Source: Actinomycetes bacterium (GTDB lineage Bacteria; Actinomycetota; Actinomycetes; S36-B12). From it: a stretch of DNA of 64,000 nt. Where the stretch lies: positions 600,075 to 664,074 of the forward strand of contig OZ257128.1 in assembly GCA_965278945.1 (NCBI GenBank), given 5' to 3'. Shown one piece after another: positions 10,154 to 34,765 of this stretch (position 1 is its first letter; each line of letters begins with the position of its first letter). The notes beneath the pieces are model-generated. The model saw nothing but the letters and a program-made list of their open reading frames with translations, was not told the DNA's origin and searched no databases. A program made the position numbers and the translations under genes.

Positions 10154-10165
10154 CGGTCCCCGACC

Positions 10166-12151: not shown

Positions 12152-12431
12152 GCTCGCGGGCTCCGCAGTGCCGCGTCGCGCCGATCGCGTGGTGCAGGCG
12201 GCGGTCGACGGCGAACTCGTGCTGATGAGCCCGAAGGACTTCGCCTACTTCGGCACCGCGGGCTCGGGCGATCCGGTGTGGGAGCTCATCGACGGGTCGC
12301 GGTCGGTCGACCAGATCGTCGCCGACCTGGAGTCGCGCTTCGCTGCAGAGCCCGGGGTGATCCGCACGCAGACGCTGGCCTTCCTCGATGCCCTCCAGGC
12401 CGCCGGCCTCGTCACGGTCTCCACCGCCTGA
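12144..12431 (+). CDS. PqqD-family RiPP recognition element (lasso B1 protein)
   Basis: 95 aa; VDGELVLM..YF...VWELIDG.RSVDQIV..L...F....FLDAL...GLV pattern. Confidence 0.85.
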   Translation: MPELAGSAVPRRADRVVQAAVDGELVLMSPKDFAYFGTAGSGDPVWELIDGSRSVDQIVADLESRFAAEPGVIRTQTLAFLDALQAAGLVTVSTA

Positions 12432-12493: not shown

Positions 12494-13771
12494 GGCAGGT
12501 TCAATCGGTGAGTGCAACGCCTGAGTGGTGGAGGCGTTGTGGCTGGTTCGGATCGGTATTACTCGTGGGAGCGGCGTAGGCCGTTCTTCGACGCGATTGC
12601 CCATGGTGCGTCGTTTCTGGAGGCGGTCGCGGTGGTGGGCGCGGCGGGGTCGGCGTGCCAGAAGTGGTGGCGGCAGTCTTCGGGCATGCAATTGACGTTG
12701 GGGGTGCGCGGGGGCTTGAGGATTGTTCCTGGCGGGGATGGGTTTGTCGGGGACAAGTTGACGGCGCTGGAGCGCGATCAGATCGGCACGGGTCTGGCGG
12801 CGGGCTTGTCGCAGGCGGCGATCGCGCGTGTGATCGGGCGTAGCGCGTCGACGGTGTCGCGGGAGGTCCGCCGTAATGCCGGGCCGGATGGGACGTATTA
12901 CGGGTCGCTGGCGCACGTGAAGGCGTTCCAGCGGGCTCGCCGGCCCAAGGGTTTCAAGCTGGATGGGCGCGCGGATCTGATCGCGGCCATCACCGGCTGG
13001 CTCGATGATGGGTGGAGTCCGCGGCTGATCGCCCTCGTGCTGGCCGAGCAGGGCGGCGGGGACAAGACTGCACGGGTGTCGCACGAGACGATCTACCAGT
13101 CCCTTTACGTGCAGGCGCGCGGGCATCTGCGCGCGGACCTGCATCGGGCCTTGTCCACGGGCCGTGCCCGGCGCCGATCACGGACCGCGACCCGACGTGG
13201 TCCCAGTCCGTTCTCCGATGCCCTGACGATCTCCCAGCGACCCTCCGAGGTCGATGACCGCGCCGTGCCAGGTCATTGGGAGGGCGACTTGATCCTGGGC
13301 ACCGGATGCGCCTCGGCGATCGGGACCCTGGTCGAGCGGTCGACCAGGTTCACGATCCTGCTGCACCTGCCGATCGATCACACCGCGGAGGAAGTCGCCA
13401 AGGCGATGATCACAGCGATGGGCGACCTGCCCGAGCACCTGCGCCGCTCGATCACCTGGGACCGCGGAAGCGAGCTGGCCCGCTGGCGCGACATCCAGAT
13501 CGCCCTGGACACGCAGTTGTTCTTCTGCGACCCGCACTCACCCTGGCAGCGTGGCAGCAACGAGAACACCAACCGGCTGCTACGGCACTGGTTCACCAAG
13601 GGCACCGACCTGTCCGTCCACGACGTCACCGAGCTACGCCGCGTGCAGGACAAACTCAACTCCAGACCACGCCCTACCCTTGGACTGAAGACCCCCGCCC
13701 AAGCACTCGCGGAATACCTCGAGCAGCAGGCGGCCTAGACAACCGCGTTGCACTCACCGATTGACATCGCC
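12494..13771 (+). mobile_element. IS30-family insertion sequence (type 1)
   Basis: Perfect 20-bp inverted repeats at 12501-12520 and 13745-13764, extendable imperfectly to 12494/13771; flanking GCG direct repeat at 12491-93 and 13772-74. Confidence 0.9.
12512..13738 (+). CDS. IS30-family transposase
   Basis: HTH STVSREVRRN, VSHETIYQ, GHWEGDLI, TWDRGSE, PWQRGSNENTN; true start may be slightly downstream. Confidence 0.95.
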   Translation: MQRLSGGGVVAGSDRYYSWERRRPFFDAIAHGASFLEAVAVVGAAGSACQKWWRQSSGMQLTLGVRGGLRIVPGGDGFVGDKLTALERDQIGTGLAAGLSQAAIARVIGRSASTVSREVRRNAGPDGTYYGSLAHVKAFQRARRPKGFKLDGRADLIAAITGWLDDGWSPRLIALVLAEQGGGDKTARVSHETIYQSLYVQARGHLRADLHRALSTGRARRRSRTATRRGPSPFSDALTISQRPSEVDDRAVPGHWEGDLILGTGCASAIGTLVERSTRFTILLHLPIDHTAEEVAKAMITAMGDLPEHLRRSITWDRGSELARWRDIQIALDTQLFFCDPHSPWQRGSNENTNRLLRHWFTKGTDLSVHDVTELRRVQDKLNSRPRPTLGLKTPAQALAEYLEQQAA

Positions 13772-13812: not shown

Positions 13813-15489
13813 CTAGCGGAGGGTGACCACGTGGTCCGCCGCGGCGATCGTCGAGCGTCGGTGCGCTACCACGAGGACGGTCACCGCTGGGGTGAGCGAT
13901 CTGATGAGCGCGAGCACCTCGGCCTCGGTCGCATCGTCGAGAGCTGACGTCGGCTCGTCCAGCACGAGCAGGACAGGCCGTCGCAGCAGCGCTCGAGCAA
14001 GGGCCACGCGTTGGCGCTCGCCACCGGACAGGCGAAGGCCCCGATCGCCGAGGGGGGTGTCGAGTCCGTCGGGCAGAGTGCGCGCGAACGACGCGGACGC
14101 CTGGTCGAGTGCGCTCCATAACTCGTCATCGCTGCAGTCGCGCTGGACGGACCACGCCAGGTTGTCGCGCAGCGAGCCCGGGATCAGCACGCTCTCCTGC
14201 GGAACATAGGCGATATGCGCGCGCCACCATGCGAGATCCGCGTCGGGCAGTTCGGCTCCGTCGATGAGGATGCATCCGCTCGTCGGCACGAGGAGCCCCA
14301 GAACCAGGTCGACAGTCGTCGACTTGCCCGCCCCGGATGGTCCGACCAGGGCGGTGATCGCGCCGCGCGGGACGGTGAAGCTCTGGGCCTGCACTCCGCT
14401 TTCGGTGCCGGGGTAGGTGAAGGACACGTCGACGAACTCGGCGAGCGTCGATCCTGTCGACAGTGTCGAACGGCTCGACTCGGCACCCGCAGGGACCTCG
14501 ACCTCGCGACGTGCCTCGTCGGTGAGCGTGGTGAGGTCGCGGACGGCCGGCAGTGAGTTGGCCATGAGCGCAGACGCGCTGACCATCTGCCTAACGCTGA
14601 TGGCCAGGCGGAAGACCAGCAGCAGGACGACGACGATGGTCGCGGGCGGAACGTCGAGCGCGACGGCCACGAGCACGAGTACCGATGCGGCTATCGCCGT
14701 GCCAACCGACGTCAGCCCGGACACGAGCGACTGGCGGCGCACGTTCGACACCTGCACCTCGCGCGTGCCCGCGAATGCGTCCGCGAGCCGGTCGGTCCAT
14801 ACGACGGAAGCCGAATGCGCGCGAACCAGCCGAAGGGAGTCGAGGGAGTCGGTGATGACGGACTGCATGGTGCGCTGGCGCTCGCCCAGCTCGACGCCGA
14901 GCCGGTGGGCCGGGCGAACGGACAACGACTGAGCCGCGGCCATGAGGATCACTCCGAGGATCGCGATCAACGCGACGACGGGGGACACGAACAGCGCGAT
15001 GATCGCGGTAACCAGTGCGAGCACGCCGCTGACGCAGAACTGCAGCAGCTGGTTGTAGGCCATGCCCGCGCGAACGGCGCCGAGGCTGATCACGGCGATG
15101 ATGTCGCTGCGTCGCCTGCTGAGCAGGAAGGTCCACCGCGCTGCGAGCACGGCGGCGAATGCCTCGTGACGCAGTTGATCGACGAGCACCTGCTGCACGC
15201 GGGTGGTCGTCACCGACGACACCTGGGCGATCGCTGCCTGCACGACGATGACGAGGACGAAGGCGGCGAGGAGCGCCCACAGGGGAACCGAGCTCAGCTC
15301 GAAGTCGCCGAACAGCGGCACCGTCAACGTGGCCGTGCTATCGGCTATGGAGTTCACGATTGGTATGAGAAGCAGCAGGCTTGCGCCGCCGAGCACCGCG
15401 GTCGCAAGAAGCGCGAGGATCTGGATGACGACCCGACGAGGCGACAGCCGCCACGCCTGCGCAGCGAGAAGGCGCATGTCGCCGATCAC
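13813..15489 (-). CDS. ABC exporter, fused permease/ATPase (candidate lasso D)
   Basis: TM domain plus GPSGAGKST, LSGGERQR, LLVLDE; GTG 15489 overlaps upstream stop. Confidence 0.9.
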   Translation of the reverse strand: MIGDMRLLAAQAWRLSPRRVVIQILALLATAVLGGASLLLLIPIVNSIADSTATLTVPLFGDFELSSVPLWALLAAFVLVIVVQAAIAQVSSVTTTRVQQVLVDQLRHEAFAAVLAARWTFLLSRRRSDIIAVISLGAVRAGMAYNQLLQFCVSGVLALVTAIIALFVSPVVALIAILGVILMAAAQSLSVRPAHRLGVELGERQRTMQSVITDSLDSLRLVRAHSASVVWTDRLADAFAGTREVQVSNVRRQSLVSGLTSVGTAIAASVLVLVAVALDVPPATIVVVLLLVFRLAISVRQMVSASALMANSLPAVRDLTTLTDEARREVEVPAGAESSRSTLSTGSTLAEFVDVSFTYPGTESGVQAQSFTVPRGAITALVGPSGAGKSTTVDLVLGLLVPTSGCILIDGAELPDADLAWWRAHIAYVPQESVLIPGSLRDNLAWSVQRDCSDDELWSALDQASASFARTLPDGLDTPLGDRGLRLSGGERQRVALARALLRRPVLLVLDEPTSALDDATEAEVLALIRSLTPAVTVLVVAHRRSTIAAADHVVTLR

Positions 15490-17171
15490 GAGTCGGCCTC
15501 GATCGCGTCGAGCACGGCATCGAGCGTCCACGCGTCTCGCGGTCGCTCGACGAGAGTGATCGGCACGATGTCCGCGAGCTGGGCCACCTGCGCAAAGTAG
15601 CGCTCCTGGCCGAGCACGATCGGCGCGATGCCATCGCGCGTGGTGTGGGCCAGGAGTGCAGCCATCCGCTCTGCTCCGAAAATACGGCGGACCGTCACCA
15701 CCTGCTCGTCCGTCGACGTGAGGACGACGATGCCGTCGATGCGCCGCGGCTCGGCGGACGGAGCCTCGGCGCGGAATGCGACCTTCACGCGTCCGCGGCC
15801 CAGCGGAGCCAGCGAGTCGAAGTCGACGCCCACCGCTGCGGCAGCGTCCTCAAGGAGGTGGACGTTCCTCGAGTACGGAGTCGTCCATGCGCCGCCATCG
15901 CGGAACTCGACGAGAGTCACGTCATCGCACAGCAGGGCGTGGCCCCGCGATCGCAAACCCATTGCCGTTGTTGACTTTCCCGCGCCGCGGGCGCCTGCGA
16001 CGGCAACGACCCGATTGCCCACAAGAACCGTCGACGCGTGCAGGCTGAGCATTCCGCGCTGCAGCATCGCGAGGGTGACTGCCCAGCCCTGCACCATCCA
16101 GCCGACGTCGTCTGCCCCGGAGACGCCGCGGTCGACAACCACGTCAGTGCCATTCTCGACGAGCAGTCCCGCGCGACCGCGGAAGCGCAGGAGCGCGGCC
16201 GTGGGGGTGACCTCGATCCACGGCCGCGGCTGCTCGGCGCCCGGCAGCGAGACGGGAAGTCGGCCCTCGCGCACGCTGATACCCAGGCTCGGTGGCAGCC
16301 AGCGCCAGTCGCTCGCGTCGATCGTCACGGAGGGGGAGTAGCCCAGTCGCGCCATGAGCTCGGCGTGCTCGTCCTCGATCATCGCCGCCTGGTCGTCGGT
16401 GAGCTCGTCGCGCCATCCGCCCTCGATACCCCGACGGAAGAACTGCTCGGTATTCGGATGCGTGCCGCGGAACCCGCGGTCCGCCTCGGACTCCTGCAGG
16501 CGGTCGAACCTGGCCTGCTCGACCGCGACCGCGAGCTCCTCCTGCGAGCACTCGATGCCAATGGCGGTGAACACCGGATGCAGGGTCGCGACCGCATCGG
16601 ACACGAGGTCCTCGAAGCGCACGACATGCACGGGGAAGGGCACGTCCTCGCCGAGCCAGCTGCAGGCATGGCTGCTCCATGTTCCCCACGGCTGCGCGGT
16701 CTGCGATCTCGCCGCGTTCGCGACCTGCTCGCCACCGTTCGTGCCCATCGCGTCGATCGCCTCGTCGATCGTCGTGCCGAAGAAGGCCGCGGCCGAGCAC
16801 GCCACGTCGCGTGGATCGCGCACGACGAGGATTGCGGCCCGCGTCGCGTCTGCGGGGAATGGGGCACTCCCGCTACTGCCGGTTCTGTAGATCTCGTGCG
16901 TCTTGCGCAGGAGCGGCGCGCCGGTCTCGTCCGACTGTGCGAATCGTCGCGTCAGCGCGCTGCGCACTCCATCGTTCTCGTCATCGGTCAGCCATCGCGT
17001 GTCCAGGCCGTAGGCACCCAGTGCGGCCCCGACGTGGTGCGGCTGCGACCCCGACGACAGGTGGTCGACGCCGAACAGCTCCGGATGCGTGCCGAGCGCG
17101 GTGACGATCGCGCGAACCCAGGTGTTGCCGGACTTCGGATAGGACGCCAGCCACACCGTACGGGCGCTCAC
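15486..17171 (-). CDS. Fusion of PAPS-dependent sulfotransferase and HPr-kinase-like domain
   Basis: N-half WLASYPKSGNTW (5'-PSB) and VVRDPRDVACS (3'-PB); C-half LHAS..VAGARGAGKSTT..LLCDDV. Confidence 0.82.
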   Translation of the reverse strand: MSARTVWLASYPKSGNTWVRAIVTALGTHPELFGVDHLSSGSQPHHVGAALGAYGLDTRWLTDDENDGVRSALTRRFAQSDETGAPLLRKTHEIYRTGSSGSAPFPADATRAAILVVRDPRDVACSAAAFFGTTIDEAIDAMGTNGGEQVANAARSQTAQPWGTWSSHACSWLGEDVPFPVHVVRFEDLVSDAVATLHPVFTAIGIECSQEELAVAVEQARFDRLQESEADRGFRGTHPNTEQFFRRGIEGGWRDELTDDQAAMIEDEHAELMARLGYSPSVTIDASDWRWLPPSLGISVREGRLPVSLPGAEQPRPWIEVTPTAALLRFRGRAGLLVENGTDVVVDRGVSGADDVGWMVQGWAVTLAMLQRGMLSLHASTVLVGNRVVAVAGARGAGKSTTAMGLRSRGHALLCDDVTLVEFRDGGAWTTPYSRNVHLLEDAAAAVGVDFDSLAPLGRGRVKVAFRAEAPSAEPRRIDGIVVLTSTDEQVVTVRRIFGAERMAALLAHTTRDGIAPIVLGQERYFAQVAQLADIVPITLVERPRDAWTLDAVLDAIEADS

Positions 17172-17923
17172 GATGCCCACCACTCGAGCAACTGGCCGAC
17201 GGACGCGTCGTGCTCGGCGCCGATGCGTAGGACTGCCGACGGCAGGTCGGCCAGCCGTAGGTGCTCGCTGACCGCGGGCTCGTCGGACTCCGCGACCGGT
17301 GCGAGCGCGCCTCCCAGCATGAGGCTCGCGGCGCGCTCGAACTTGCGGTGGCCGGTCAGCTCGGTGAACGCGTCCTCGCTCGGCCGACGTCGCGTGACCT
17401 GCACCACGCGCGAGACGGTCGCCGGCACGACCGAACGCGGCAGGTCGACGCTGACCACGTTGGACTGGTCGCGAATCGCGGCCCCGTCGAATCCGGCGGC
17501 GACGGCTCGCTGCTTGGCGATCAGCAGCGGCGCGGACCTGGGGTGAGCGATCAGCCGGCTGTCGACCCAGCGCGTGGGCGTCGGCCGGTCGCTCAGGAGC
17601 AGCCAGCCATGACGGGACAAGGCGATAACGACAGTCGCGACCTCGGGAGCATCACCGCAGACGAGTAGGGCATGGTCTGCAGAGTCGGCAGGAACGACGG
17701 CGGCTCCCAGCGCCATCGAGTAGCCGCGACGGGCATGGGACAGCAGGTCGCCCCATCCGTGGTGGAGGGCGCGAGCCTTCTGCCCGAGCGGATCAGGCCC
17801 TTCGGCCTCGGTGAACACGTCGCCGTTTGCGCCAATGGCGACTGACCCGAGTCCTGCACACGTTCCGCGCCAGACCGGACCGGTGCGGTCAAGCACGACG
17901 GCCGGTGGATCCTGCGAGTTCAC
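17168..17923 (-). CDS. HPr-kinase-like paralog with degenerate P-loop
   Basis: Parallels the kinase half of the downstream gene (A.LVCG....LSRHGW.LLSD..T), but GDAPEVATV replaces Walker A. Confidence 0.5.
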   Translation of the reverse strand: MNSQDPPAVVLDRTGPVWRGTCAGLGSVAIGANGDVFTEAEGPDPLGQKARALHHGWGDLLSHARRGYSMALGAAVVPADSADHALLVCGDAPEVATVVIALSRHGWLLLSDRPTPTRWVDSRLIAHPRSAPLLIAKQRAVAAGFDGAAIRDQSNVVSVDLPRSVVPATVSRVVQVTRRRPSEDAFTELTGHRKFERAASLMLGGALAPVAESDEPAVSEHLRLADLPSAVLRIGAEHDASVGQLLEWWAS

Positions 17924-18022
17924 GTGGCTAGGTTCCCATGTCCGCGTCAAGCCGCGGGTGGGATGGCCGCGCTGAGTAATGTCCAACGCAGTTCCGGTCG
18001 AGTCAGTTTCCAGGAGACGTCA

Positions 18023-20081: not shown

Positions 20082-20267
20082 TCCGGACAATCTACGCACG
20101 CGCCGCCCGACAGGGCTGCCAAAGTCCCGAGTCGGCCGATAATTAGCCATAGAAAGCCCTCCGCCGTGGCAGTTGCAGGGAATGCGCGCTGATATCCTTC
20201 GATTGAGGCGAGTGTTATCCAGGATAATCCTGTCTAGCTCGCGACGGTGGCACCCGGGAGGACGAGC

Positions 20268-21587
20268 ATGACGGGTCGACGCACGACGACGCGTTTAGTC
20301 GCGCTCGCCGGCACGTCTGCCGCCGCGCTCGCGATGCTCGTCGCCGTGCCGGCATATGCCGCAGCGCCTGGCTCGCCCGCCTGCAACGCAACGGGCGGCA
20401 ATCTGATCACGAGCACCAGTGCGGAAAATGTCGCGGGCAACTTCGTCCACACGTTCACCGCGAGCGGGACCTTCACGCCCAAGCAGGCGATGACCATCAC
20501 CTACCTGATCGTCGCCGGTGGCGGTGGTGGTGGCGGAGCAGCAGCGAGCACGGCCGGTGGTGGTGGAGGCGCCGGAGAGATGATCACCGCATCTGTGGCC
20601 GTCACCGCGAATACCGCGTACACGATCACCGTGGGCGGTGGCGGCGCGGGAGGCGCATCGACGACGAGCCGCGGAACCGTCGGGAGCGTGAGCAGCATCG
20701 GCTCCCCGATCTCCGTCACCGCGCAGGGCGGCGGCGGCGGGTCTGCCGGAGTGACGAACTTTGCAGGCGTGAACGTGACGACCGGAGAATCCGCCGGAGG
20801 TGCCGGCGGAAACGCGGCCAATGGCACTCCCGCCGGAGGCACCGCGGTCGCGCCAGGCGGTAACGGCGGCAACGGGCGCGGTTCGACGACGACGTCGCGC
20901 CCGGCCGGTGGCGGCGGTGGCGGCGACGGTGCAGCTGGGGCGGCTAGTCCGTCCAATGGCGTCGGCGGCGCGGGCGGCGCGGGCACCGCGAGCTCGATCA
21001 CTGGCACCTCACTTACCTACGCCGCTGGTGGTGGTGGCGGCGGTCGCACCACGGGCGGCGCTGGCGTAAGTGGCGTCAGTGGCGCCGGAGGACTGGCGAT
21101 CGCAGGAACTGCTGCTCCCGGAAACCGTGGTGGCGGTGGAGGAGGAGCCGGAAACGGCACGAGCGGGACCAAGGCGGGAGGCAATGGCGGATCGGGAGTC
21201 GTCATCATCTCCTACGCCAAGAACGCTGGGTGCTTCTCTGCGCCCCAGTCACCGTCGTTCTCCAACCCCACCTTCAGTTGGACCGCTCCGGCGACCACGC
21301 CCACGGGCCAGACGGTGTCGTCATACACGGTGATGTACAAGAGGTCCACGGACACGACCTACGGCAACATCTATGCGCGGCGAGTCGCCGGACAGACGGC
21401 GACAAGCTTGAATATCACTGGCGTTGACAACGCTGCCTGTGCGACCAACAACAGTGCCTTGATCTGGACGTGCGTCTCGGTCCAACTCGTCAGCGGTCAG
21501 ACTTACGACTTCAAGGTATTCGCGAGGGGAAGCGCGACGAGTTCCTTTGGAAGGCTTTCGACCGCAGTTCAGTACACGGTTCCGTAA
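20268..21587 (+). CDS. Secreted glycine-rich-domain protein with C-terminal FN3-like domain (paralog)
   Basis: TFTASGTFTP..YLIVAGGGGGG, GGSGVVIISY; GGAGGA before ATG 20268. Confidence 0.75.
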   Translation: MTGRRTTTRLVALAGTSAAALAMLVAVPAYAAAPGSPACNATGGNLITSTSAENVAGNFVHTFTASGTFTPKQAMTITYLIVAGGGGGGGAAASTAGGGGGAGEMITASVAVTANTAYTITVGGGGAGGASTTSRGTVGSVSSIGSPISVTAQGGGGGSAGVTNFAGVNVTTGESAGGAGGNAANGTPAGGTAVAPGGNGGNGRGSTTTSRPAGGGGGGDGAAGAASPSNGVGGAGGAGTASSITGTSLTYAAGGGGGGRTTGGAGVSGVSGAGGLAIAGTAAPGNRGGGGGGAGNGTSGTKAGGNGGSGVVIISYAKNAGCFSAPQSPSFSNPTFSWTAPATTPTGQTVSSYTVMYKRSTDTTYGNIYARRVAGQTATSLNITGVDNAACATNNSALIWTCVSVQLVSGQTYDFKVFARGSATSSFGRLSTAVQYTVP

Positions 21588-21616
21588 TGATCGAGGACAT
21601 GGAAGGAGGCGAGCAC

Positions 21617-21751
21617 GTGGACAGTCAACTCCAGACGTGGGTGACCCCGCGCCTGGTTCCGCTTGCTGCCTCTGGCGACTCGAAAAACAATCTCTCCGGC
21701 ACTGGTGACATCGACCAGACCTACAGCGGGTTCCCGTACGGCTATAGCTGA
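21617..21751 (+). CDS. Lasso peptide precursor (44 aa: MDSQLQTWVTPRLVPLAASGDSKNNLSGTGDIDQTYSGFPYGYS)
   Basis: GGAAGGAGG RBS at 21601-09, WxxPxL leader motif, two Asp candidates in core, C-terminal Ser, stop 4 nt before the cyclase start; alternative ATG 21587 gives 54 aa. Confidence 0.8.
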   Translation: MDSQLQTWVTPRLVPLAASGDSKNNLSGTGDIDQTYSGFPYGYS

Positions 21752-21755: not shown

Positions 21756-23339
21756 ATGCACGGACTAACCGCGCGACTGGGTCCGTCTGGCTTCGTGGTC
21801 GACACGCCTGCGGCCGATGCCCCGACGATTGCCACGGAAGTCCTTGCTCCCGACGGCACCATGGCGGGCGCGGTCTACGGCTCGGTCTCGCAGCGGGAGG
21901 CCGACGCACTCGTCATGCGCCTGTCGCTCGGGGGTGACCCGGGAGGACCGGACGTGCCTTGGATCGCGGTCGCGCGATTCGGGTCTGACGGGCTCGCGGG
22001 CGCGGCTTCCATGATGATGCCGAGCGGTCTGTTCTGGTCCGTGGCTAACGACGAGCTGGTCGTCTCGTCGGACCCGGTGTCGGCGACGACAGATCACACC
22101 CTCGACCCCCAATACGTCCGTGACTATGTCGCGGGCAAGACGCGTCCGGTCACCGCTGCGTTCGTTGGCGTACGTCGTGCGACCGCCGGGTCGACTGTGA
22201 CCTGGGCGACGCCGACGTCGCCGGTCGGCTCGCACGTGTGGTGCGGTCCCAGTGTGTGGTCGCAGCCGAGCCTTGACGGCCTGGCGGCCATGACGACCTA
22301 TCTCGAGGTGTTCGACGCGGTCATCGCGGATCTTGCTCGACGATCGCGTCCGCTCGTGACCACCGTGTCGGGCGGTCTCGACTCGACTTTCGTCGCCGCC
22401 AGCCTTGTCAGGGGCTCAGACGGTCCGGTACGCGGCCTCACGTACGCGCCCGTTCCTGGTGCGATGGTCGACGCCGATGCTGACGAGTCCGCTCTCGCCA
22501 TGCTCATGGCGGACGAGTACCCGGGCCGACTGACGGTCGAGCGAGTCGGAAACGCAGGAATGGTCAGGCCGCTGGCGGCCGCGGCAGAGATCTCGCGCCG
22601 CGCGGGAGTTCCGACGTTCACGCCGGCGAACCAGCCCTGGTTGTCGCGGATGCGCGAGATCGCTGCGAGTGGCGGTTCATCGATGTGGTTCGTCGGTTCG
22701 AACGGCAACGCCGCGTTCAGCTATCACCATCCCTACGCGGCCGACTACTACCTTCGTCGGGCGCGAATCCACGGTCTCGCGGAGCTGGCCCGTGATGGCG
22801 GACTGCGCACCCGGGTGCTCGGTCCGTTGAGGCGAAAGTATCTGGGCGGGCCGACGGACTCGTCGGCAGCAATGGACCGAGCCACGTACCTGCGTTGGCT
22901 GGCCCGTTCGGTCACGGGACTGCCTGCTGCCGGCAACCCCGCGGCGATGCAGGGCGTGCTGATGGCAGACCCCTTTGCTTCGCGGGCGGTCATCGAGGTC
23001 GCGGCGGCCATCACCCCGGCCGAGTGGGCCCGCGGGGGAGTTGCCCGAGGGTTTGCGAGGAGAGCGAGCATTGGACGGGTCCCCGACGCGATCCGGCTAC
23101 GAAGCGGACGGGGCCTCCAGGGCAGGGATGCGTGGTTCGTCATCCGCAACGACAAGGACGACTACCTGGACCGGATCTCCACCCTGCCGGGCCTTGCGGG
23201 TCTCGAGGAAGTCGACCACAAGGAAATGCACGCGCAGGTTGCCGCGTGGCCGTGGGGCCAGACGCAGGGACCGCCCTGGTTGGATCAGATCGCCGTGGAC
23301 CGAGTTCTCGGCGTGGCCGAGTTTGTAAGCATTTGGTAG
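21756..23339 (+). CDS. Asparagine-synthetase-like lasso cyclase (C protein)
   Basis: VSGGLDST PP-loop, G.NGN, DPFASRAVIE, ARRA..GRVPDAIRLR.GRGLQ; no N-terminal catalytic Cys of the glutaminase domain. Confidence 0.85.
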   Translation: MHGLTARLGPSGFVVDTPAADAPTIATEVLAPDGTMAGAVYGSVSQREADALVMRLSLGGDPGGPDVPWIAVARFGSDGLAGAASMMMPSGLFWSVANDELVVSSDPVSATTDHTLDPQYVRDYVAGKTRPVTAAFVGVRRATAGSTVTWATPTSPVGSHVWCGPSVWSQPSLDGLAAMTTYLEVFDAVIADLARRSRPLVTTVSGGLDSTFVAASLVRGSDGPVRGLTYAPVPGAMVDADADESALAMLMADEYPGRLTVERVGNAGMVRPLAAAAEISRRAGVPTFTPANQPWLSRMREIAASGGSSMWFVGSNGNAAFSYHHPYAADYYLRRARIHGLAELARDGGLRTRVLGPLRRKYLGGPTDSSAAMDRATYLRWLARSVTGLPAAGNPAAMQGVLMADPFASRAVIEVAAAITPAEWARGGVARGFARRASIGRVPDAIRLRSGRGLQGRDAWFVIRNDKDDYLDRISTLPGLAGLEEVDHKEMHAQVAAWPWGQTQGPPWLDQIAVDRVLGVAEFVSIW

Positions 23340-23367: not shown

Positions 23368-24378
23368 GTGAGAGGCAATCGAGTTCGCGCGCGTCGTGCC
23401 CTCGTCATCGCTAGTATCTCGGGCCTCGGGCTCGGTGCCGCGCTGATCTCTCCTACGCCGGCCCACGCGGCCGACGCCTCGATAGGGGTCAGTCTCTACA
23501 GCGTCGGCGGAGCACAGATCCAGTTCAGCATCTGCCTCAACGAGGGTGACGCTCTGCCCGCTCGCGTGAACGGGACGTACACGGTGACGGGTGGTGCCGG
23601 CACTGTCGGCCCGGTCGATTGGTCCGACGCCGATCCGACTTCGATTCTCATCGGCACAGAACCCTGCCCGAGTTCGCTCGTGACGATCGCGGTGGACGAC
23701 CTCCTTCCGTCGACGAGCTACACGATCAACGTCCACGTCAACCTCGTTCCCAAGACCGAGGACGACGACGACAATTTCGTTGACGACACGTCGCGCTCGA
23801 CAGTGTCGCTTGATGCATCGCTCGTAGCGTCGACCACGGACGGGACCTCACCTGACAATGGGCCTGGCGCCGGGGAGTCGGGCGGCGAGACAGGTACGAC
23901 CGACGGGTCTACGGATGCGGGCACTGGGGGTACCTCACCTGGAAATGCCGGCACATCGACCGGTGGTGCCGTCACACCCGTCGTCATCAGCAATCCCGCT
24001 GCGTTCACGTCCTCCCAGTTCTCGGCGCTGACGCCAGCACAAGTGGCGACCATTGCGCCGTCGGCCTTCGGTCAGTTGCCTCCGGCCACGTTCAAGGCGA
24101 TGACCGCGACCCAGGCCGCCGCAATCACGGTCGAGCAGGCATCGAGCATTCGCGCAGCACGTGCCGCAGAACTCCGGCCGTCGGCAGTTGCCGCACTGAC
24201 ACCTAACGCCATCGCTGCGATGCGTCCGTCCGCGATCAAGTTCCTGACGCCGGCGGCCGTAGGAGCCATGACCACCGCCCAGCTACGCGCGCTCACCCCG
24301 CGCCAGATCGCCGCGCTGCGTCCGCTTCAGATCGCCGAGCTCACGGCCGCCGAGAAGGCCTTGCTCCGGGTCAGATGA
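23368..24378 (+). CDS. Secreted protein with C-terminal octapeptide repeats
   Basis: Signal peptide ending AHA, beta-rich domain, G/T linker, about 14-15 eight-residue units (LTPAQVAT..LTPRQIAA). Confidence 0.7.
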   Translation: MRGNRVRARRALVIASISGLGLGAALISPTPAHAADASIGVSLYSVGGAQIQFSICLNEGDALPARVNGTYTVTGGAGTVGPVDWSDADPTSILIGTEPCPSSLVTIAVDDLLPSTSYTINVHVNLVPKTEDDDDNFVDDTSRSTVSLDASLVASTTDGTSPDNGPGAGESGGETGTTDGSTDAGTGGTSPGNAGTSTGGAVTPVVISNPAAFTSSQFSALTPAQVATIAPSAFGQLPPATFKAMTATQAAAITVEQASSIRAARAAELRPSAVAALTPNAIAAMRPSAIKFLTPAAVGAMTTAQLRALTPRQIAALRPLQIAELTAAEKALLRVR

Positions 24379-24905
24379 GCATGCCGAGCGAGCATCCCGC
24401 GCAGAGCGCCGCATCGCGGCGTTGGCGGGGTCGCGCCCGCGTCGCGCAGGCGATGGCGCTCATGACCGTCACCGGTGCTGCGCAGAAGATCGTTCCGATG
24501 ACCCGCTGGTCCCGCGTGATCGGCGAGCACTCCGGCGTGCCGACCGCATGGGAGGCGAAGCCCGATCGTCCCGTGCCGTTGCGCAGCGCAGACCTCGACG
24601 AGGAGCGCGTGCGTCGCGCGATTCAACGTGCCGCCGATCGCCTGCCCTGGACGCCGAGCTGCCTGGCGGAGGCGGCGGCGGGCCAGATCATGCTGCGCCG
24701 TCGCGGCAAGCCCGGCGTCGTCGTCATCGGCCTGCGTCCGGCCGCCGGTGAGTGGGATGCGCATGCCTGGCTGCTCGGCGCGCGTGGCGCGCTGACCGGC
24801 GGGCCCGCGGCCGAGGGCTTCACGCCGACGACGGTGTTCGAGGTACCGGACGGACTGAAGGCCTCGGACGTCGACCTGTCCGAGCCCACCCCGCACCACG
24901 CCTAG
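24375..24905 (+). CDS. Lasso B2 leader peptidase (transglutaminase-like)
   Basis: WTPSCLAEA (Cys), VVIGL, AHAWL (His); ATG overlaps upstream stop. Confidence 0.88.
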   Translation: MSMPSEHPAQSAASRRWRGRARVAQAMALMTVTGAAQKIVPMTRWSRVIGEHSGVPTAWEAKPDRPVPLRSADLDEERVRRAIQRAADRLPWTPSCLAEAAAGQIMLRRRGKPGVVVIGLRPAAGEWDAHAWLLGARGALTGGPAAEGFTPTTVFEVPDGLKASDVDLSEPTPHHA

Positions 24906-24924
24906 CCCACCCACCCACCCCCCG

Positions 24925-24938
24925 CGAGTGGGCAGTTG
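24925..24938. repeat. REP-like hairpin family A, left arm (interrupted)
   Basis: cgagtgggcagttg, identical to the arms at 31458, 33192 and 41313. Confidence 0.75.
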
Positions 24939-24955
24939 ATGCTGCATTTCCGGCG

Positions 24956-26216
24956 CTTGGGTTCAAGGGATCGATGCAACACCTGAGGTGAAGAGGTGTT
25001 GTGATGCTTGGTCCTCCGGGGTTGCCGCCAGCGGTGCGGCTCGGGTTTTGGCAGTGGGTGCGGTCGGGGTTGTCGGTCGCGGAGGCGGCTGCTGCGGCGG
25101 GCGTGTCCGAGCGCACGGGTGCGGGGTGGTTCGGTGAGGCTGGCGGAGTGATGCCTTCATCGGTGACGCCCGGCAAGGTCAGGCCTCGGTTGACGTTCGA
25201 TCAGCGTGAGGAGATCGCGGTCCTGCGTGGGTCGGGGGCGTCGAACGCGGAGATCGCGCGGGCGGTGGGCTGTCACCGGTCCACGATCGGGCGTGAGCTG
25301 GCGATGAACTCCACGTTCTTCGCCGACCGGCACCTGCCTAGGTATCGGGCGTCGATGGCGCAGAAGCGCTCCGACTGGCGGGCTCGCCGGCCGAAGGCGT
25401 CCGCGCTCAAGGCCAACGACCGGCTGCGGCAGGTGGTGCAAGATCACTTGGAGGACGAACTCAGCCCGGAGCAGATCTCAGGTCGGCTGAGGATCGATTT
25501 CCCTGATGATCCGGAGATGCGCGTGAGTCACGAGGCGATCTACCAGGCGTTGTTCGTCCAGGGCCGCGGCGCGTTGCGCCGTGACCTGCACCAACGGCTG
25601 CGCACGGGCCGGGCGATCCGCAAGACCCGGAGGACCGCAGGTGAGCGCCGTGGCCGGATCCCGGGGATGGTCTCCATCACCGAGCGCCCGCCCGAGGTCG
25701 CCGACCGTGCTGTTCCTGGCCATTGGGAGGGCGACCTGATCGTGGGGAAGAACTCCGGCTCGGCGATCGGGACCTTGGTCGAGCGGGCAACCGGGTTCTG
25801 CCTGCTGCTGCACCTTCCCGGCAACCACGGCGCGGACGCGGTAGCCGACGCGATGATCACCGCGATGAGCCAGCTGCCGGCGACCTTGCGACGCACGCTG
25901 ACCTGGGACCAGGGATCGGAGATGGCCAACCACGTCCAGATCGCCGCAGCCACGGACCTGGACATCTACTTCTGCGATCCCCACTCACCATGGCAGCGCG
26001 GATCCAACGAGAACACCAACGGCCTGCTGCGTCAGTACTTCGCCAAAGGCTCCGACCTGTCGGTCTATGCCCCGGACTATCTCGAGCACGTCAGCCGAAA
26101 ACTGAACAACCGGCCACGCAAACGCCACGGCTTCAAGACACCAGCCGAAATGCTCGACCACCTACTGTCAGAACCGGTCAATCCAACCGATGTTGCATCC
26201 ACCGCTTGAATCCACC
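24956..26216 (+). mobile_element. IS30-family insertion sequence (type 2, copy 1)
   Basis: 1261 bp shared with 41344-42604; imperfect ttcaag..gatgcaac terminal inverted repeats; no clean target-site duplication seen. Confidence 0.9.
25001..26209 (+). CDS. IS30-family transposase
   Basis: VSHEAIYQ, GHWEGDLI, TWDQGSEM, PWQRGSNENTNG. Confidence 0.95.
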   Translation: MMLGPPGLPPAVRLGFWQWVRSGLSVAEAAAAAGVSERTGAGWFGEAGGVMPSSVTPGKVRPRLTFDQREEIAVLRGSGASNAEIARAVGCHRSTIGRELAMNSTFFADRHLPRYRASMAQKRSDWRARRPKASALKANDRLRQVVQDHLEDELSPEQISGRLRIDFPDDPEMRVSHEAIYQALFVQGRGALRRDLHQRLRTGRAIRKTRRTAGERRGRIPGMVSITERPPEVADRAVPGHWEGDLIVGKNSGSAIGTLVERATGFCLLLHLPGNHGADAVADAMITAMSQLPATLRRTLTWDQGSEMANHVQIAAATDLDIYFCDPHSPWQRGSNENTNGLLRQYFAKGSDLSVYAPDYLEHVSRKLNNRPRKRHGFKTPAEMLDHLLSEPVNPTDVASTA

Positions 26217-26232
26217 TCGATTTCGGCCGCGA

Positions 26233-26246
26233 CAACTCACCACTCG
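26233..26246. repeat. REP-like hairpin family A, right arm (variant)
   Basis: caactcaccactcg, matching the variant arm seen at 13785-13803. Confidence 0.7.
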
Positions 26247-26372
26247 ACGAGGTTTCCGTGCCGGGATTGGGGGTGATTCCGGGTCACCGATCCGACACTC
26301 CTAGGGAAGGTCTCGTTCGGCATGGTCGAGCCCGCTTGCCAGCCGGCTCGACTGAACCGAAGGAGGCATCCC

Positions 26373-27767
26373 GTGACCCCGAGAGTCCCTGCGTTCGTCC
26401 CCCGCGGGCGTAGGGACTCCTCGGCGGAGGCGGGCTTCACGCTGGTCGAGGTCATGGCGGCCGTCGTCATCTTCGTGATCATCTCCACGGCGACCGTCGC
26501 GATCCTCATCCAGGCCCTGCGCGTCGTGCGCGACAACTCCGATCGGGTGATGGCCGCGAGCATCGCCCGCTCAGAGGTCGAGTACCTGCGGACGATCGGC
26601 ACGACCGCCATCCCGATCGGCCTGACCGTCGGGCCGTACCCGGCCGGCCAGAGCGCGTCCTTGCGCGTGGACCCGCGGATGCTCGACCCGAAGTTCACCA
26701 TCAGGACCACGAGTAACTGGGTCGGCCTGAACCAGACGCAGACGGCCTGTGCCGCGTCGTCGCCCGGCCAGGCGTACATGCGGGTGACCGTGGAGGTGAG
26801 CAGCCAGAACCTGGGTCGCCCGGTCACGGTCGACACGGTGATCTTCCCGGAGACCACCTACCAGGTGACCGGCTCGGGCTCGGCGACGGTCGCGCTCATC
26901 GACCAGGTCGGATCGCCGGTCAGCGACGTGCTCGTGCGCGGCATCGACGCGATCCACCCGACCAACAACTTCACCGTGACGAGCGGCACCGACGGCTGTC
27001 TGTACATCCCGAACCTCGTGGCCACCGGATCGCTGGGCGTCACCGTCTCGCGAGCCGGGTACGTCTCGCAGACGCCGACCGGAACGCAGGCGGTCATCCA
27101 GATCACCTCCGGCAACGTCTCGCGCTCATCGTTCAAGCTCGCCGCGGCCGCGACCGTGCAGTTCGCGAGCGCGGACGCGACGTACTCGATCCCGGCCTCG
27201 ATGCCGGTGCAATGGCAGTTCAACACGACCGGCGCGAGCGCCACGGCGGGCGAGGTCGGCACTCCCGCGACCGGTCTGTGGCCTGAGCCGAGCGGGATCT
27301 CCGTCTACCCGGGCTCCTGCGCGGACGCCGACCCGATCTCCTACGGCGTGAGCCGCCAGTCGTTCTCCCTCGACGCGGGCGGGACGTCGGTCGCGACGTT
27401 GCACTCGGCCCCGGTGCGGGTGCGCGGCCTGTCCGCCGACATCCCCGTGACGGCGCGGTATGTCGGTACCGACACCGCCTGCTCGTTCACTCCGTTCGTC
27501 GTGGGCAGGTCGAACAACCAGGGCATCCTGCGCGTCGGGCTGCCCTACGGAGACTGGGAGTTCGTCGCCGGGGGCCAGACTCATCGGCTCGACACGCCGC
27601 TGCGCCCGCTCGGGGACGGCACCCCGCCCGAGCCCTCGGTCGTCGCCTTCACTCTCGCCGACCTGGACAACCCGTGCCCCACTGCGTCGCCCACGCCGAG
27701 CGGCTCGCCAAGTCCCAGCCCCACGCCTACCGGGACGACGTGCCCCAGTCCGTCGTCGACGCCATGA
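26373..27767 (+). CDS. Type IV minor pilin (PilV-like) with large C-terminal domain
   Basis: AEAG|FTLVEVM class III signal; AGGAGG before GTG 26373. Confidence 0.85.
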   Translation: MTPRVPAFVPRGRRDSSAEAGFTLVEVMAAVVIFVIISTATVAILIQALRVVRDNSDRVMAASIARSEVEYLRTIGTTAIPIGLTVGPYPAGQSASLRVDPRMLDPKFTIRTTSNWVGLNQTQTACAASSPGQAYMRVTVEVSSQNLGRPVTVDTVIFPETTYQVTGSGSATVALIDQVGSPVSDVLVRGIDAIHPTNNFTVTSGTDGCLYIPNLVATGSLGVTVSRAGYVSQTPTGTQAVIQITSGNVSRSSFKLAAAATVQFASADATYSIPASMPVQWQFNTTGASATAGEVGTPATGLWPEPSGISVYPGSCADADPISYGVSRQSFSLDAGGTSVATLHSAPVRVRGLSADIPVTARYVGTDTACSFTPFVVGRSNNQGILRVGLPYGDWEFVAGGQTHRLDTPLRPLGDGTPPEPSVVAFTLADLDNPCPTASPTPSGSPSPSPTPTGTTCPSPSSTP

Positions 27768-28438
27768 CCGGGCCAACGACGTCGCCCGACGACCTCCGCG
27801 AACCCGACTCCGGCTTCACCCTTGTCGAGCTCATGGTGGCGATGGGGGTCTTCGCGATCCTCATGACGATCGTCGGCGCCGCCATGCTGACGGGCTTCGT
27901 CGGCGTGCACGATGTAATGGCCCGTTCCGAGACCGGCGCGAGCGCGCGCATCGCGGGGGAGTGGACCAGCAAGCTGCTCCGCTACGCGGACCTGCCCGAG
28001 GGCCAGGCCGCCGCGATCACCGAGGCCAGCCCGACGTCGATCACCTTCTATACGTACTCGGGGACCGGCGCGAAGCACGACGTGCCGTACCGCGCACGTA
28101 TATATAGCGTGATCAATCCCGATGCGACCCGCTCGCTCATGAGCCAGGTGTGGACGCCGACCGCGATCACCGGGGGATGGACCTGGACGGGGACTCCCGT
28201 GACCAGGTCGATGCTCACCCTTCCGAGCACTGCGCTCGGGCCGCTGCTCGTCGAGGTGTGGGTGCGCAATCCCCTCGCCATGCCGGCCGCCGTCGCGCGC
28301 ATCGCCACCCCGACGACCTCAGGGCCCGTGCTACTGGGGGTCGGCGAAGTCCCGGAGTCGGTCGTCCTGCAGATCGGCGACCGGAACGACCCGCGCAACC
28401 TGATCACGCAGCAGATCCGCCTCGGGAACCTCTCGTGA
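27764..28438 (+). CDS. Type IV minor pilin (PilW-like)
   Basis: PDSG|FTLVELM; ATGA overlap. Confidence 0.85.
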   Translation: MTGPTTSPDDLREPDSGFTLVELMVAMGVFAILMTIVGAAMLTGFVGVHDVMARSETGASARIAGEWTSKLLRYADLPEGQAAAITEASPTSITFYTYSGTGAKHDVPYRARIYSVINPDATRSLMSQVWTPTAITGGWTWTGTPVTRSMLTLPSTALGPLLVEVWVRNPLAMPAAVARIATPTTSGPVLLGVGEVPESVVLQIGDRNDPRNLITQQIRLGNLS

Positions 28439-30597
28439 CCAGGCTGCGGATCGCGTGGCGTCGTGCGGAGGGCGACGAGGGCGTCGCGATGCTCCTGGTG
28501 ATCGCGTGGAGCATGGCGCTGATGGCGCTCGCGCTGATCGTTACCCAGGCGGCCATCAACCAGATTCGGCCTTCCGACCAGCCCGAGCAGTCCAGCGCGG
28601 CCTTGGCCGCGGCCGAGGCCGGGATCGACGACTACCGCGCGCGGCTGCTCGCGTCTCCCGCGTACTACCTCAGCCCCGATCCGACGAACGCCGCTCTCAC
28701 CGGGTGGGCGCCAGTCCCAGGAGGCAACACCGACAGCGAGTTCACCTACGCGGTCGACGCCAGCCGCGCCGGGGTCGGCGGTCAGGTGCGACTGATCTCG
28801 ATGGGCCGCTCCGGCGGCGTGACGCGAACGCTCGAGGCGATGATGTCCAAGCGGTCGACTCTCGACTACGTGTACATGAGCGACGTCGAGTCACCGTCGG
28901 CCGACCTGCCGGGTGCGTACAGCACCGCGGCCAACTCCGGCGGCGCCACCGGGATCACCGCGCAGCAGCTCGCCAGGCTCGTCTGCACGCACCGGTTCTA
29001 CGAGACCGGCCAGGTGTCCCCGACCGGGGTCACCCCGCTCACGGGCAAGCAGCGAAACCTGAACTTCTGCCAGTGGGCGGGCATCTACGCCACGGAAAGA
29101 CTGCGCGGCGCGATCCACACCAATGACGTGTGGCGGCTGGACGATGTCAGCCTCGTGAACTCGATCGACGCGAACGCCATCACGTCGTCGTGCCGCAGCA
29201 CGGCGGAGGGGCTGCAGCCCGGTGAGGCGGGATGCTCGGCGACCCACCGCTACATCGAGACGGACTACGGATACGGCAACAACGCGGCCAACGCCACGTG
29301 GTCGTCGAACACCAGGTACCAGGGCGACGCGGCGAATCCCGCGTCCGGCACCGACTACACGGGCCGCAACCCTCGCTATGACTCGGTGCTCGATCTCCCG
29401 CCATCGCCCGCCACCTTGAAGAAGCACGCGAGCGATCTCGGCTGCGTGTTCACCGGCCCGACCCGTATCAGGTTCGCCCAGGAGAGCGGCGTGGGCGTCA
29501 TGTACGTGACGAGCCCCAATACCAAGGAGACCGCGCCGGCCTGCGACGGTGCGGACGGCACGACACTCGACAACGGGACGCCGACCGCGCAGACGACCAA
29601 GCGCATCGTGCTGACCGACCTCACCGGAATCGTCATCTACGTGCAGAACGTCCGACGGGCAACAGAGTCCGACGACCCCGACAATGCGTTCGACCTCACC
29701 AATCGCTGGGCCGTGGGCGCGGAGCCGACCTGCCAGAACAAGTCCGGCACGCGCAAGTACCCCTACGTCATCCCCAACGATGCGACCGACGCCGGCTACT
29801 TCGCAGGAGGCTCCACGTACAAGGGCTTCCCCTCCGAGCTCGCCGATCCCGCCTCGCCCTGGTACGGATCCAGCTGCAGCAGCGGTGACCTGTACGTGCA
29901 GGGCGCGTTCCGCGGGCAGGTGACCTTGGCCACGGAGAACAACGTGATTCTCACGAGCAGCCTCATCGACTCCCAGCAGACACCGGCAACGACCACGGGC
30001 CAGCCCCTCGCCTCGTCGCAGAGCACGATCGGCGTGGTGTCGAGCAAGTTCACCTACATCTACCGGCCGTTCACCGCGTCGAACGCGTGGGTCGGGGACT
30101 GGCGGGTCGCGAACGCGACCGACGTGAAGTTCAACTTCGCGATGCTCGCCATCGACCAGTGCTTCGCGACCCAGGATCCGTACTACGGCGCACGCAACGG
30201 CAACCTGTACCTGTGGGGCTCGATCGCGCAGAAGTACCGATGCGTCGTCGGCTCCACGGGCGGCTACAACAAGCAGTACTCCTATGACACGCGCCTGGCC
30301 CGTCGAACTCCGCCCTACATGCTCGAGCTGTCCAACGAGCCGTGGCAGGACAACCGGATCGGCGAGGTCTCGCCCCTCACGCAGCCCGTCGGCATGACAA
30401 CGTGGCCGCTGCTCTATGCCGACGACATCGGAGCGACGGTCAGCAATGTCGCCGTCGCGGCCGGACCGGCGACCGTCGCGGCCGTCGGCACGTCGGCGAG
30501 GGTCACCGCCACCGGGCCGGGGCTCGTCATCGTCTCGTACACGATCACGACCAGCGGCCTGGCGGACTACCGCCGTTTGGTCATCCATGTCGAGTAG
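28435..30597 (+). CDS. PilX-like minor pilin with large extracellular domain
   Basis: GDEG|VAMLLVI without Glu5, A..AAEAGI motif; GTGA overlap. Confidence 0.75.
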   Translation: MTRLRIAWRRAEGDEGVAMLLVIAWSMALMALALIVTQAAINQIRPSDQPEQSSAALAAAEAGIDDYRARLLASPAYYLSPDPTNAALTGWAPVPGGNTDSEFTYAVDASRAGVGGQVRLISMGRSGGVTRTLEAMMSKRSTLDYVYMSDVESPSADLPGAYSTAANSGGATGITAQQLARLVCTHRFYETGQVSPTGVTPLTGKQRNLNFCQWAGIYATERLRGAIHTNDVWRLDDVSLVNSIDANAITSSCRSTAEGLQPGEAGCSATHRYIETDYGYGNNAANATWSSNTRYQGDAANPASGTDYTGRNPRYDSVLDLPPSPATLKKHASDLGCVFTGPTRIRFAQESGVGVMYVTSPNTKETAPACDGADGTTLDNGTPTAQTTKRIVLTDLTGIVIYVQNVRRATESDDPDNAFDLTNRWAVGAEPTCQNKSGTRKYPYVIPNDATDAGYFAGGSTYKGFPSELADPASPWYGSSCSSGDLYVQGAFRGQVTLATENNVILTSSLIDSQQTPATTTGQPLASSQSTIGVVSSKFTYIYRPFTASNAWVGDWRVANATDVKFNFAMLAIDQCFATQDPYYGARNGNLYLWGSIAQKYRCVVGSTGGYNKQYSYDTRLARRTPPYMLELSNEPWQDNRIGEVSPLTQPVGMTTWPLLYADDIGATVSNVAVAAGPATVAAVGTSARVTATGPGLVIVSYTITTSGLADYRRLVIHVE

Positions 30598-30603
30598 GCG
30601 AGA

Positions 30604-31428: not shown

Positions 31429-31457
31429 CCCCGCCCCGTTCCGCCCCAGACCCCCCG

Positions 31458-34763: not shown

Positions 34764-34765
34764 GT

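Follow-up and report, generated by a model that had tools for sequence, protein, structure and literature searches.

Precursor gene and its signals

The DNA analysed here (the window) is a stretch of 64,000 nucleotides from an Actinomycetes bacterium, positions 600,075 to 664,074 of contig OZ257128.1 (assembly GCA_965278945.1); all positions below are counted from its first nucleotide. At 21617–21751 it carries a short gene that, with high confidence, is translated and encodes a genuine lasso peptide precursor. By sequence, all four core components of a lasso cluster (precursor A, recognition element B1, leader peptidase B2 and cyclase C) are encoded in the window, together with an exporter and tailoring enzymes. 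As read here, the cluster is complete but physically split, and the host is an uncultured actinobacterium with a high guanine-cytosine (GC) content. The parts of the precursor gene are as follows.

21617–21751, forward strand: lasso precursor gene A, 44 codons plus stop, GTG start, TGA end; translation VDSQLQTWVTPRLVPLAASGDSKNNLSGTGDIDQTYSGFPYGYS
21603–21609, forward strand: Shine-Dalgarno sequence AAGGAGG, read from the sequence, 7 nt 5′ of the GTG at 21617
21617–21688, forward strand: putative leader, residues 1–24, including W8-x-x-P11-x-L13 and ending in the conserved Asn24 (−1)
21638–21655, forward strand: WVTPRL, residues 8–13, predicted binding motif for the recognition element; W8, P11 and L13 are invariant
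21689–21748, forward strand: putative core NLSGTGDIDQTYSGFPYGYS, 20 aa, with Asn25 as residue 1
21713–21715, forward strand: Asp33, favoured ring acceptor (Asp9), present in every family member except P0083
21707–21709, forward strand: Asp31, alternative acceptor (Asp7), Asn in P0074 and P0079
21746–21748, forward strand: Ser44, the C-terminal Ser

An earlier note on this DNA had described an atypical lasso precursor with a strong ribosome-binding site and the leader motif WVTPRL, hidden in a longer, spurious open reading frame (ORF). The Shine-Dalgarno sequence and the motif were both confirmed at the positions listed, and a purine-rich Shine-Dalgarno sequence is kept in the relatives. The program-made ORF in the precursor frame is indeed longer (21470–21751, 93 aa). 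The additional 5′ stretch shares its DNA with the 3′ end of the gene before it (20247–21587), read in another frame, and is not kept in the closest relative, locus L001, where the frame opens just 6 codons before the homologous GTG. The extension was thus rightly called spurious.

The precursor gene is single copy; tblastn found no second copy in the 64-kb window. Neither Rfam families nor tRNAs were found in the window. Some lasso operons carry an attenuator. Between A and C no significant RNA structure or terminator was found (z = −0.5), and therefore there is no attenuator of that type here. The GC content is flat across the cluster (~0.67), and horizontal transfer, as judged by composition, was rejected.

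Conservation of the precursor family

A scan of GTDB genomes with the downstream cyclase as query gave one locus, L001, in an Actinomycetes metagenome-assembled genome (MAG) whose enzyme is 73% identical. Most relatives came from searches of metagenomic proteins and contigs. About 20 homologous precursors were found in metagenomic Actinomycetota, most of them shown or inferred to lie beside cyclase homologues. Fourteen precursors beyond those reached through the cyclase (P0072–P0083, P0086 and P0087) came from word-based and profile searches with the peptide. The earlier note would have dropped its proposal if orthologous cyclases had no conserved equivalent beside them; homologues of the precursor do adjoin the cyclase homologues. 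The proposal of an atypical lasso precursor is also borne out by the conserved family and by the B1-, B2- and C-type genes in the cluster.

Six precursor copies from five loci (the window, L001, L002 with two copies, L004 and L010) were compared at the DNA level. All six have ATG or GTG at the same codon, with a purine-rich Shine-Dalgarno sequence ahead. Within the 20 core codons, each pair shows more synonymous than non-synonymous differences: 2:0 between the window and L001, 8:0 between the two L002 paralogues, and 5–10 against 2–4 in the remaining pairs. Judged by these codons, the reading frame is under purifying selection.

An alignment of eight sequences (A2) is invariant at W8, P11, L13–A17, D21, N24, G28, G30, D33 and T35–S44 (TYSGFPYGYS). 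In L002, L004 and L010 the cores are identical at 17–18 of 20 positions while the adjoining cyclases are 51–57% identical. P0077 and P0078 probably pair with cyclases P0026 (47%) and P0022 (41%), whose contigs have equal lengths to theirs. A core that stays nearly frozen while its cyclase drifts to about 41–57% identity suggests a conserved molecular target in these freshwater and wastewater Actinomycetota. In the literature searched, the core string GFPYGYS gave no match, and neither did lasso peptides together with Nanopelagicales, which is not proof of absence.

One precursor homologue, P0083 (MSTQVQPWVQPRLVLLAASADAAKKVSGAGNIVFPYASGFPAGYS), has no Asp or Glu in its core. As read, it could therefore form no macrolactam, and it may have decayed, be misassembled or be of another kind.

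Putative cyclase, leader peptidase and recognition element

Three genes of the window encode the other predicted core components. B1 is a recognition element of the kind found with ribosomally synthesised and post-translationally modified peptides (RiPP recognition element, RRE).

21756–23339, forward strand: putative lasso cyclase C, Asn-synthetase-like, 527 aa (PF00733, 59.6 bits, cutoff 21); starts 4 nt after the precursor stop
24375–24905, forward strand: leader peptidase B2, transglutaminase-like Cys protease, 176 aa (NF033537, 62.4 bits, cutoff 33; PF13471, 64 bits)
12144–12431, forward strand: B1, PqqD-like RRE, 95 aa (PF05402, 54.5 bits, cutoff 23.4)

The PP-loop of the cyclase (SGGLDS, residues 205–210) is invariant, and the N-terminal Cys is absent. 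Sequence searches of the PDB with the cyclase returned only generic enzymes of the Asn-synthetase fold (7ylz, AsnB and beta-lactam synthetase) and no lasso cyclase relative. The best PDB match of B1 is the lasso RRE TbiB1 (5v1u); its scores against the NCBIfam lasso_PqqD models are below cutoff. B1 sits 9.2 kb upstream of the precursor, and its homologues are 73% identical in L004 and 50% identical in L007. A B1 adjoining or fused to C or B2, or lying in another frame between C and B2, was also looked for and nothing was found; the B1 of the cluster is the gene at 12144–12431.

Cleavage site and ring

The register of the core was assessed in 24 sequences, including precursors beside distant cyclase homologues (33–45% identity). 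The divergent relatives used were L005, L007a/b, L008, L013/L019, L016a/b, L017, L023 and L030/P0086. L009b has a W-x-x-P motif and lies close to a cyclase of 40% identity; none of the registers suits it, and it was excluded from the register inference. All known lasso peptides have rings of 7–9 residues (PMC12214591). In the divergent relatives, the sole or first suitable acidic residue lies at Trp +23 to +25. A core start at W+17 gives a 7–9-membered ring in 23/24 sequences, compared with 21/24 for W+16, 20/24 for W+18 and 15/24 for W+19.

The residue at W+17 is Gly in L017 and in L023 (..SEN/GGGTQNTD.., the slash marking the W+17 start), whose precursor lies directly upstream of the cyclase homologue. 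It is Ala in P0086/L030 (..SRN/ASAPGDSVD..), directly 5′ of a 45%-identical cyclase, where the only acidic residue in range is at position 9. Asn recurs at W+16 in the window family, L007a, L013, L023 and P0086. With the core starting at W+17 the Trp stands at −17, in agreement with the published span of YxxPxL from −17 to −12 (PMC10368454).

With Asn25 as residue 1, Asp31 falls at position 7 and Asp33 at position 9. Asp31 is replaced by Asn in two independent homologues, P0074 and P0079 (both ..GTGNVD..), and displaced in P0086, whereas Asp33 is kept in all family members except P0083, which may be decayed; Asp33 is therefore the better acceptor. Together, the comparison favours, with a confidence somewhat above even, a leader of residues 1–24 ending in K-N, a core of N25 followed by LSGTGDIDQTYSGFPYGYS, and an Asn1–Asp9 ring between Asn25 and Asp33. 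The tail would have 11 residues (QTYSGFPYGYS), with Tyr12, Phe15, Tyr17 and Tyr19 as candidate plugs.

The usual Thr at −2, which the earlier note had reported missing, is absent in every register that gives a 7–9-membered ring. In the favoured register, −2 is K, R, G, E, M or A across the family. Exceptions to Thr(−2) have been published, with Ile, Val or Ala at this position (PMC10368454). The conserved Asn at P1 next to a variable P2 suggests that the specificity of B2 is shifted in this clade.

Alternative registers and points against the favoured reading

The most serious rival, which we regard as unlikely, places the core start at Leu26. B2 would then cleave after Asn25, Asn24 would stand in for Thr(−2), and the core LSGTGDIDQTYSGFPYGYS would close an 8-membered Leu1–Asp8 ring on Asp33. 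Lasso peptides with Leu at position 1 exist, for example citrulassin, and the W+18 register is compatible with 20/24 sequences. Asn24 is also the most conserved residue near the junction, and known systems conserve the residue at −2 (PMC10368454). However, this register leaves 6-membered rings in L013, L019 and L017 (Asn or Leu at W+16, sole acidic residue at W+23), puts Pro at position 1 in L005, and moves the Trp to −18 instead of −17. Keeping the start at Asn25 and closing on Asp31 would give a 7-membered Asn1–Asp7 ring with a 13-residue tail. Asp31 is within the 7–9 range, and this register would also leave L013 and L017 with rings of 7 residues, but the two natural variants with Asn31 keep the rest of the core including Asp33, and we hold this ring to be quite unlikely. 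A start at Ser27, offered as an alternative by the earlier note, would give the core SGTGDIDQTYSGFPYGYS with a 7-membered Ser1–Asp7 ring on Asp33 and a leader ending in ..NNL. This ring does use the conserved Asp33; Ser and Ala are classic position-1 residues, residue 27 is one of them in most close homologues, and L007a has Thr at −2 under W+19. Against this, some family members have Asn, Thr, Phe or Gln at residue 27, the register fits only 15/24 relatives, and the Trp would be at −19. We consider the Ser27 start decidedly unlikely.

The first choice of the earlier note, with Ser(−2)/Lys(−1), Asn24 as residue 1 (NNLSGTGD...) and an 8-membered ring to Asp31, drew on residues that are indeed well kept: Asn24 is invariant in the close family and residue 31 is Asp or Glu in most members. 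It fails in P0074, P0079 and P0086, which lack Asp31 in place and are left with a 10-membered Asn24–Asp33 option only, beyond the 7–9 rule; L007a fails in the same register. This register now appears very improbable, one residue too early and on the wrong Asp, and the relatives would put Asn24 at −1, Asn25 at 1 and Asp33 as Asp9. Equally remote, in our judgement, is that the product is not a lasso peptide at all, the ORF being untranslated or serving an Asn-synthetase-like enzyme with other chemistry, with the lasso features coincidental. The cyclase lies below the curated lasso-cyclase cutoffs and unusual secreted proteins are embedded in the cluster. However, the frame is under purifying selection with its start and Shine-Dalgarno sequence conserved, the cluster holds a bona fide B2 and a PqqD-type RRE, the WxxPxL motif is invariant, and nearly all relatives have an acidic residue at 7–9.

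Several points weigh against the Asn1–Asp9 reading and the proposed lasso system. The cleavage site, ring and threading come from comparison of relatives throughout, and the register argument presumes that the Trp always stands at the same distance from the cleavage site. Several of the anchors are predicted peptides only, and the L017 peptide is partial, with its cyclase 2.6 kb away. The cores of L008, L013 and L016 would begin with Thr or Asp, and the core of P0083 is without an acidic residue. W+17 puts the conserved residue at −1 and not at the usual −2; W+18 would place the conserved Asn at −2, which is mechanistically tidy. The cyclase scores 15.6 bits against NF033535 (cutoff 525) and is below both NCBIfam lasso-cyclase cutoffs; among 20 cyclase relatives, 12/20 match NF033535 and 9/20 match NF033561, all weakly. 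The HPr-kinase-like domain of the cluster (described below) is also below cutoff, with 24 bits for Hpr_kinase_C (cutoff 33.3) and 35.6 bits for TIGR04352 (cutoff 200). Finally, an IS30-family insertion parts B1 from the other genes, and the expression of the cluster in this strain could therefore be disturbed.

Exporter, tailoring and embedded genes

The other genes of the cluster and its flank are listed below. PAPS is 3′-phosphoadenosine-5′-phosphosulfate, ABC is ATP-binding cassette and IS is insertion sequence.

10166–11215, forward strand: NTP_transf_5 nucleotidyltransferase (PF14907, 113.7 bits), candidate enzyme for glycosylating phospho-Ser; homologue in L007
11225–12151, forward strand: NAD-dependent sugar-nucleotide epimerase/dehydratase (PF01370, 193.7 bits); overlaps the B1 start by 8 nt
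12512–13738: IS30-family transposase gene between B1 and the ABC exporter, with ~75% DNA identity to two other IS30 copies in the window
13813–15531, reverse strand: ABC exporter D (ABC_tran and ABC_membrane), syntenic in L001 and L004
15486–17183, reverse strand: sulfotransferase-kinase fusion, 565 aa, with a PAPS-type sulfotransferase (YPKSGNTW, RDPRD; PF00685, 83 bits) and an HPr-kinase-like P-loop domain (GARGAGKST)
17168–17986, reverse strand: conserved protein of up to 272 aa without a Pfam or NCBIfam match; homologues in L001, L004, L007 and L010
17924–18757, 18783–20081 and 20247–21587, forward strand: three secreted fn3/Gly_rich_2 proteins directly 5′ of the precursor and syntenic with it
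23368–24378, forward strand: secreted ALTTAQ-repeat protein, 336 aa, between C and B2 (PF20080, 47.7 bits), syntenic in L001, L002, L004 and L010

The order B1, ABC exporter, sulfotransferase-kinase, 272-aa protein, Gly-rich genes, A, C, ALTTAQ protein and B2 recurs in L004 and partly in L001 and L010. In L004 the PqqD gene abuts the ABC gene without an IS. The true start of the exporter is probably slightly downstream of the listed one. Homologues of the sulfotransferase-kinase fusion are 49–79% identical and syntenic in L001, L004, L007 and L010, and the Walker A motif of its HPr-kinase-like domain (GARGAGKST) is intact.

In the relatives (L001, L004, L007 and L010), the 272-aa protein always lies beside kinase or B1/PqqD genes. 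Its alignment with the HPr-kinase-like domain is weak and not significant (E = 0.6), with GDAPEVAT in the place of the P-loop. It may be a degenerate kinase-like partner.

The NTP_transf_5 gene (10166–11215) and the epimerase gene (11225–12151) form a tight gene string in which B1 comes last. No epimerase of this kind was seen in the other loci compared, and its membership in the cluster is uncertain. Upstream, window positions 466–9123 hold a sugar-nucleotide/polysaccharide set with a UDP-glucose dehydrogenase, a glycosyltransferase of family GT4, an epimerase and a DegT-type aminotransferase. The epimerase gene next to B1 (11225–12151) could be part of this set rather than of the lasso tailoring.

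The fn3/Gly_rich_2 and ALTTAQ proteins are syntenic with the lasso genes in L001, L002, L004 and L010. Extra precursor copies were also seen in L002 (765–2212) and L031 (255–1514), directly before a Gly-rich gene and not before a cyclase. This synteny and the placement of the extra precursors suggest a functional link between the secreted proteins and the lasso genes.

Proposed pathway and C-terminal modification

The gene content would fit the following pathway. B1 (12144–12431) would bind the leader through W8-x-x-P11-x-L13, as the family pattern indicates. Ser44 of the linear precursor would be phosphorylated by the HPr-kinase-like half of the fusion (15486–17183), as paeninodin-type systems suggest by analogy. 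B2 (24375–24905) would cleave after Asn24, the site favoured by the comparative register analysis. The cyclase (21756–23339) would adenylate the side chain of Asp33 and, with the tail already folded, close the ring about it by linking this side chain to the free amine of Asn25. In the resulting 9-membered Asn1–Asp9 macrolactam, QTYSGFPYGYS would thread the ring and be locked by Tyr/Phe. A further, speculative step may be the addition of sulfate and/or a sugar on the phosphate by the sulfotransferase domain and the NTP_transf_5 enzyme. The product would be exported by the ABC transporter.

The earlier note had likened the terminal Ser to that of kinase-modified lasso peptides, which fits the HPr-kinase-like domain with intact Walker A in the cluster. 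The C-terminal Ser is invariant in the eight sequences of A2 and in L001, L002, L004 and L010. The exceptions are P0079 (..GYSG) and L005 (..FSSG), and the L005 locus showed no kinase gene. By analogy, we consider the chances of a phospho-Ser tailoring of the C-terminus to be evenly balanced; the Ser is possibly modified further. A characterised sulfated lasso peptide was not found in the literature searched, which is not proof of absence.

Related loci carry similar enzymes. One MAG contig, L007, has two cyclase homologues, each with a W-x-x-P precursor and an HPrK-like gene, in the regions 3021–4926 and 7147–10965. The precursors end in ..ANTDTIGPVPDAEFTNSPSLS and ..ALTDTGQGGDLGKFASVL, and one of the kinase genes is also fused to a sulfotransferase. 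A related clade of lower identity (L008 and L009, also L013, L016 and L018) has Cys-containing precursors (..HDTLGGGGSDGLGCGSL and ..RNTCGSYGDGSGCSSAA). The clusters of this clade have separate Sulfotransfer_2 and ScmC/HPrK-like genes, and L009 has an adenosine 5′-phosphosulfate (APS) kinase gene. With these genes in the related clade, PAPS-dependent sulfation seems to be a recurring theme of these clusters.

Comparison with known lasso peptides

The operationally closest systems are those of paeninodin, pseudomycoidin and BsfA from Bacillota and Proteobacteria. Clusters of the paeninodin/pseudomycoidin type have an accessory set of kinase, nucleotidyltransferase and sulfotransferase genes, and the nucleotidyltransferase (N) gene of the pseudomycoidin-type clusters has been described. 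There, the kinase acts on the linear precursor and phosphorylates its C-terminal Ser; hexose is attached to this phosphate by the nucleotidyltransferase (PMC8498205). Leaders without Thr(−2) occur among kinase-tailored lasso peptides, such as BsfA with Ile(−2) (PMC8498205, PMC10368454). Shared with the cluster in the window are the split B1/B2, an ABC exporter, an HPr-kinase-like gene, an NTP_transf_5-type gene, a precursor ending in Ser and a replaceable Thr(−2). The window differs from this group in its actinobacterial host, in the fusion of the kinase domain to a PAPS-type sulfotransferase, in the conserved Asn(−1) with variable −2 and putative Asn at residue 1, in the distance of B1 (~9 kb), and in the embedded secreted Gly-rich and ALTTAQ proteins.

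The earlier note had called an Asn1 lasso unusual. It is still rare, but the novelty was overstated, given the precedent of metanodin (PMC12670498, 2025). Metanodin, from a soil metagenome (Steroidobacterales, a gammaproteobacterial clone), is an experimentally supported Asn1 lasso peptide that retains Thr(−2), and no significant core similarity to others was reported (PMC12670498). As in metanodin, the ring-forming first residue here would be Asn. In both cases standard tools missed the gene or called it wrongly, and it had to be curated by hand. They differ in that Thr(−2) is missing here and that the Asn1 assignment is comparative here and experimental for metanodin. Asn1 is thus no longer unprecedented, and what distinguishes the cluster in the window is a junction with Asn(−1) but no Thr(−2), a frozen core and the candidate chemistry of the sulfotransferase-kinase fusion.

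Canonical actinobacterial class II lasso peptides with split B1/B2 include fusilassin and lariatin. The cluster in the window shares with this type the aromatic-xx-P-x-L motif at −17 to −12, the A-C order with a tightly coupled cyclase, the 7–9-membered ring on Asp/Glu (predicted here) and the bulky aromatic residues in the tail as candidate plugs. In contrast to it, the window has no Thr(−2), has Trp and not Tyr at −17, and has a shorter cyclase (527 aa) that is too divergent for the curated lasso-cyclase models. A foreign gene also stands between C and B2, and B1 is not adjacent.

Implications for lasso peptide mining

Lasso mining tools rely on Thr(−2), on Gly, Ala, Ser or Cys at position 1, and on adjacent B1 and B2 genes. 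The precursor family departs from all three expectations yet looks functional, and such rules therefore miss real precursors. Several gene callers skipped or mis-started the precursor gene. If the Asn1–Asp9 assignment is true, the peptide would add an independent second case of an Asn1 lasso, and the first such case to lack Thr(−2). It would also offer a natural system to probe how the B2 peptidase recognises its cleavage site. The sulfotransferase-kinase fusion points directly to a tailoring step that no lasso peptide has yet been shown to undergo.

A wider and rather doubtful picture, which we offer tentatively, is that of a distinct lasso clade in uncultured Actinomycetota. Its peptidase would have moved from Thr(−2) to Asn(−1), its products would have an Asn1–Asp9 ring and a tail modified in a way new to lasso peptides (for example sulfo-, phospho-sulfo- or phospho-glycosyl-modified) by the fused enzyme together with NTP_transf_5, and their role would be at the cell surface and non-antibiotic. 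In this picture the cell-surface role is proposed because the core is extremely conserved and is repeatedly paired with secreted Gly-rich/fn3 and ALTTAQ proteins.

Split cyclase call and insertion elements

In L030, a contig from a Nanopelagicales-type MAG, the cyclase homologue (6162–7916) is called as two genes of 199 and 379 aa, and tblastn aligns one piece. The split may reflect a wrong gene call or an internal stop. In the L030 locus, a homologue of B2 was not detected.

Two IS30-family copies of 1312 bp lie in direct orientation in the window (24908–26216 and 41296–42604) and are 98.8% identical; the first begins 3 bp past the B2 stop. The pair flanks 26217–41295, which includes a prepilin-like gene (26322–27767) and a PilB/T2SSE ATPase gene (37168–38838). 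The two copies may thus form a composite transposon that encloses a type IV pilus-like cluster.

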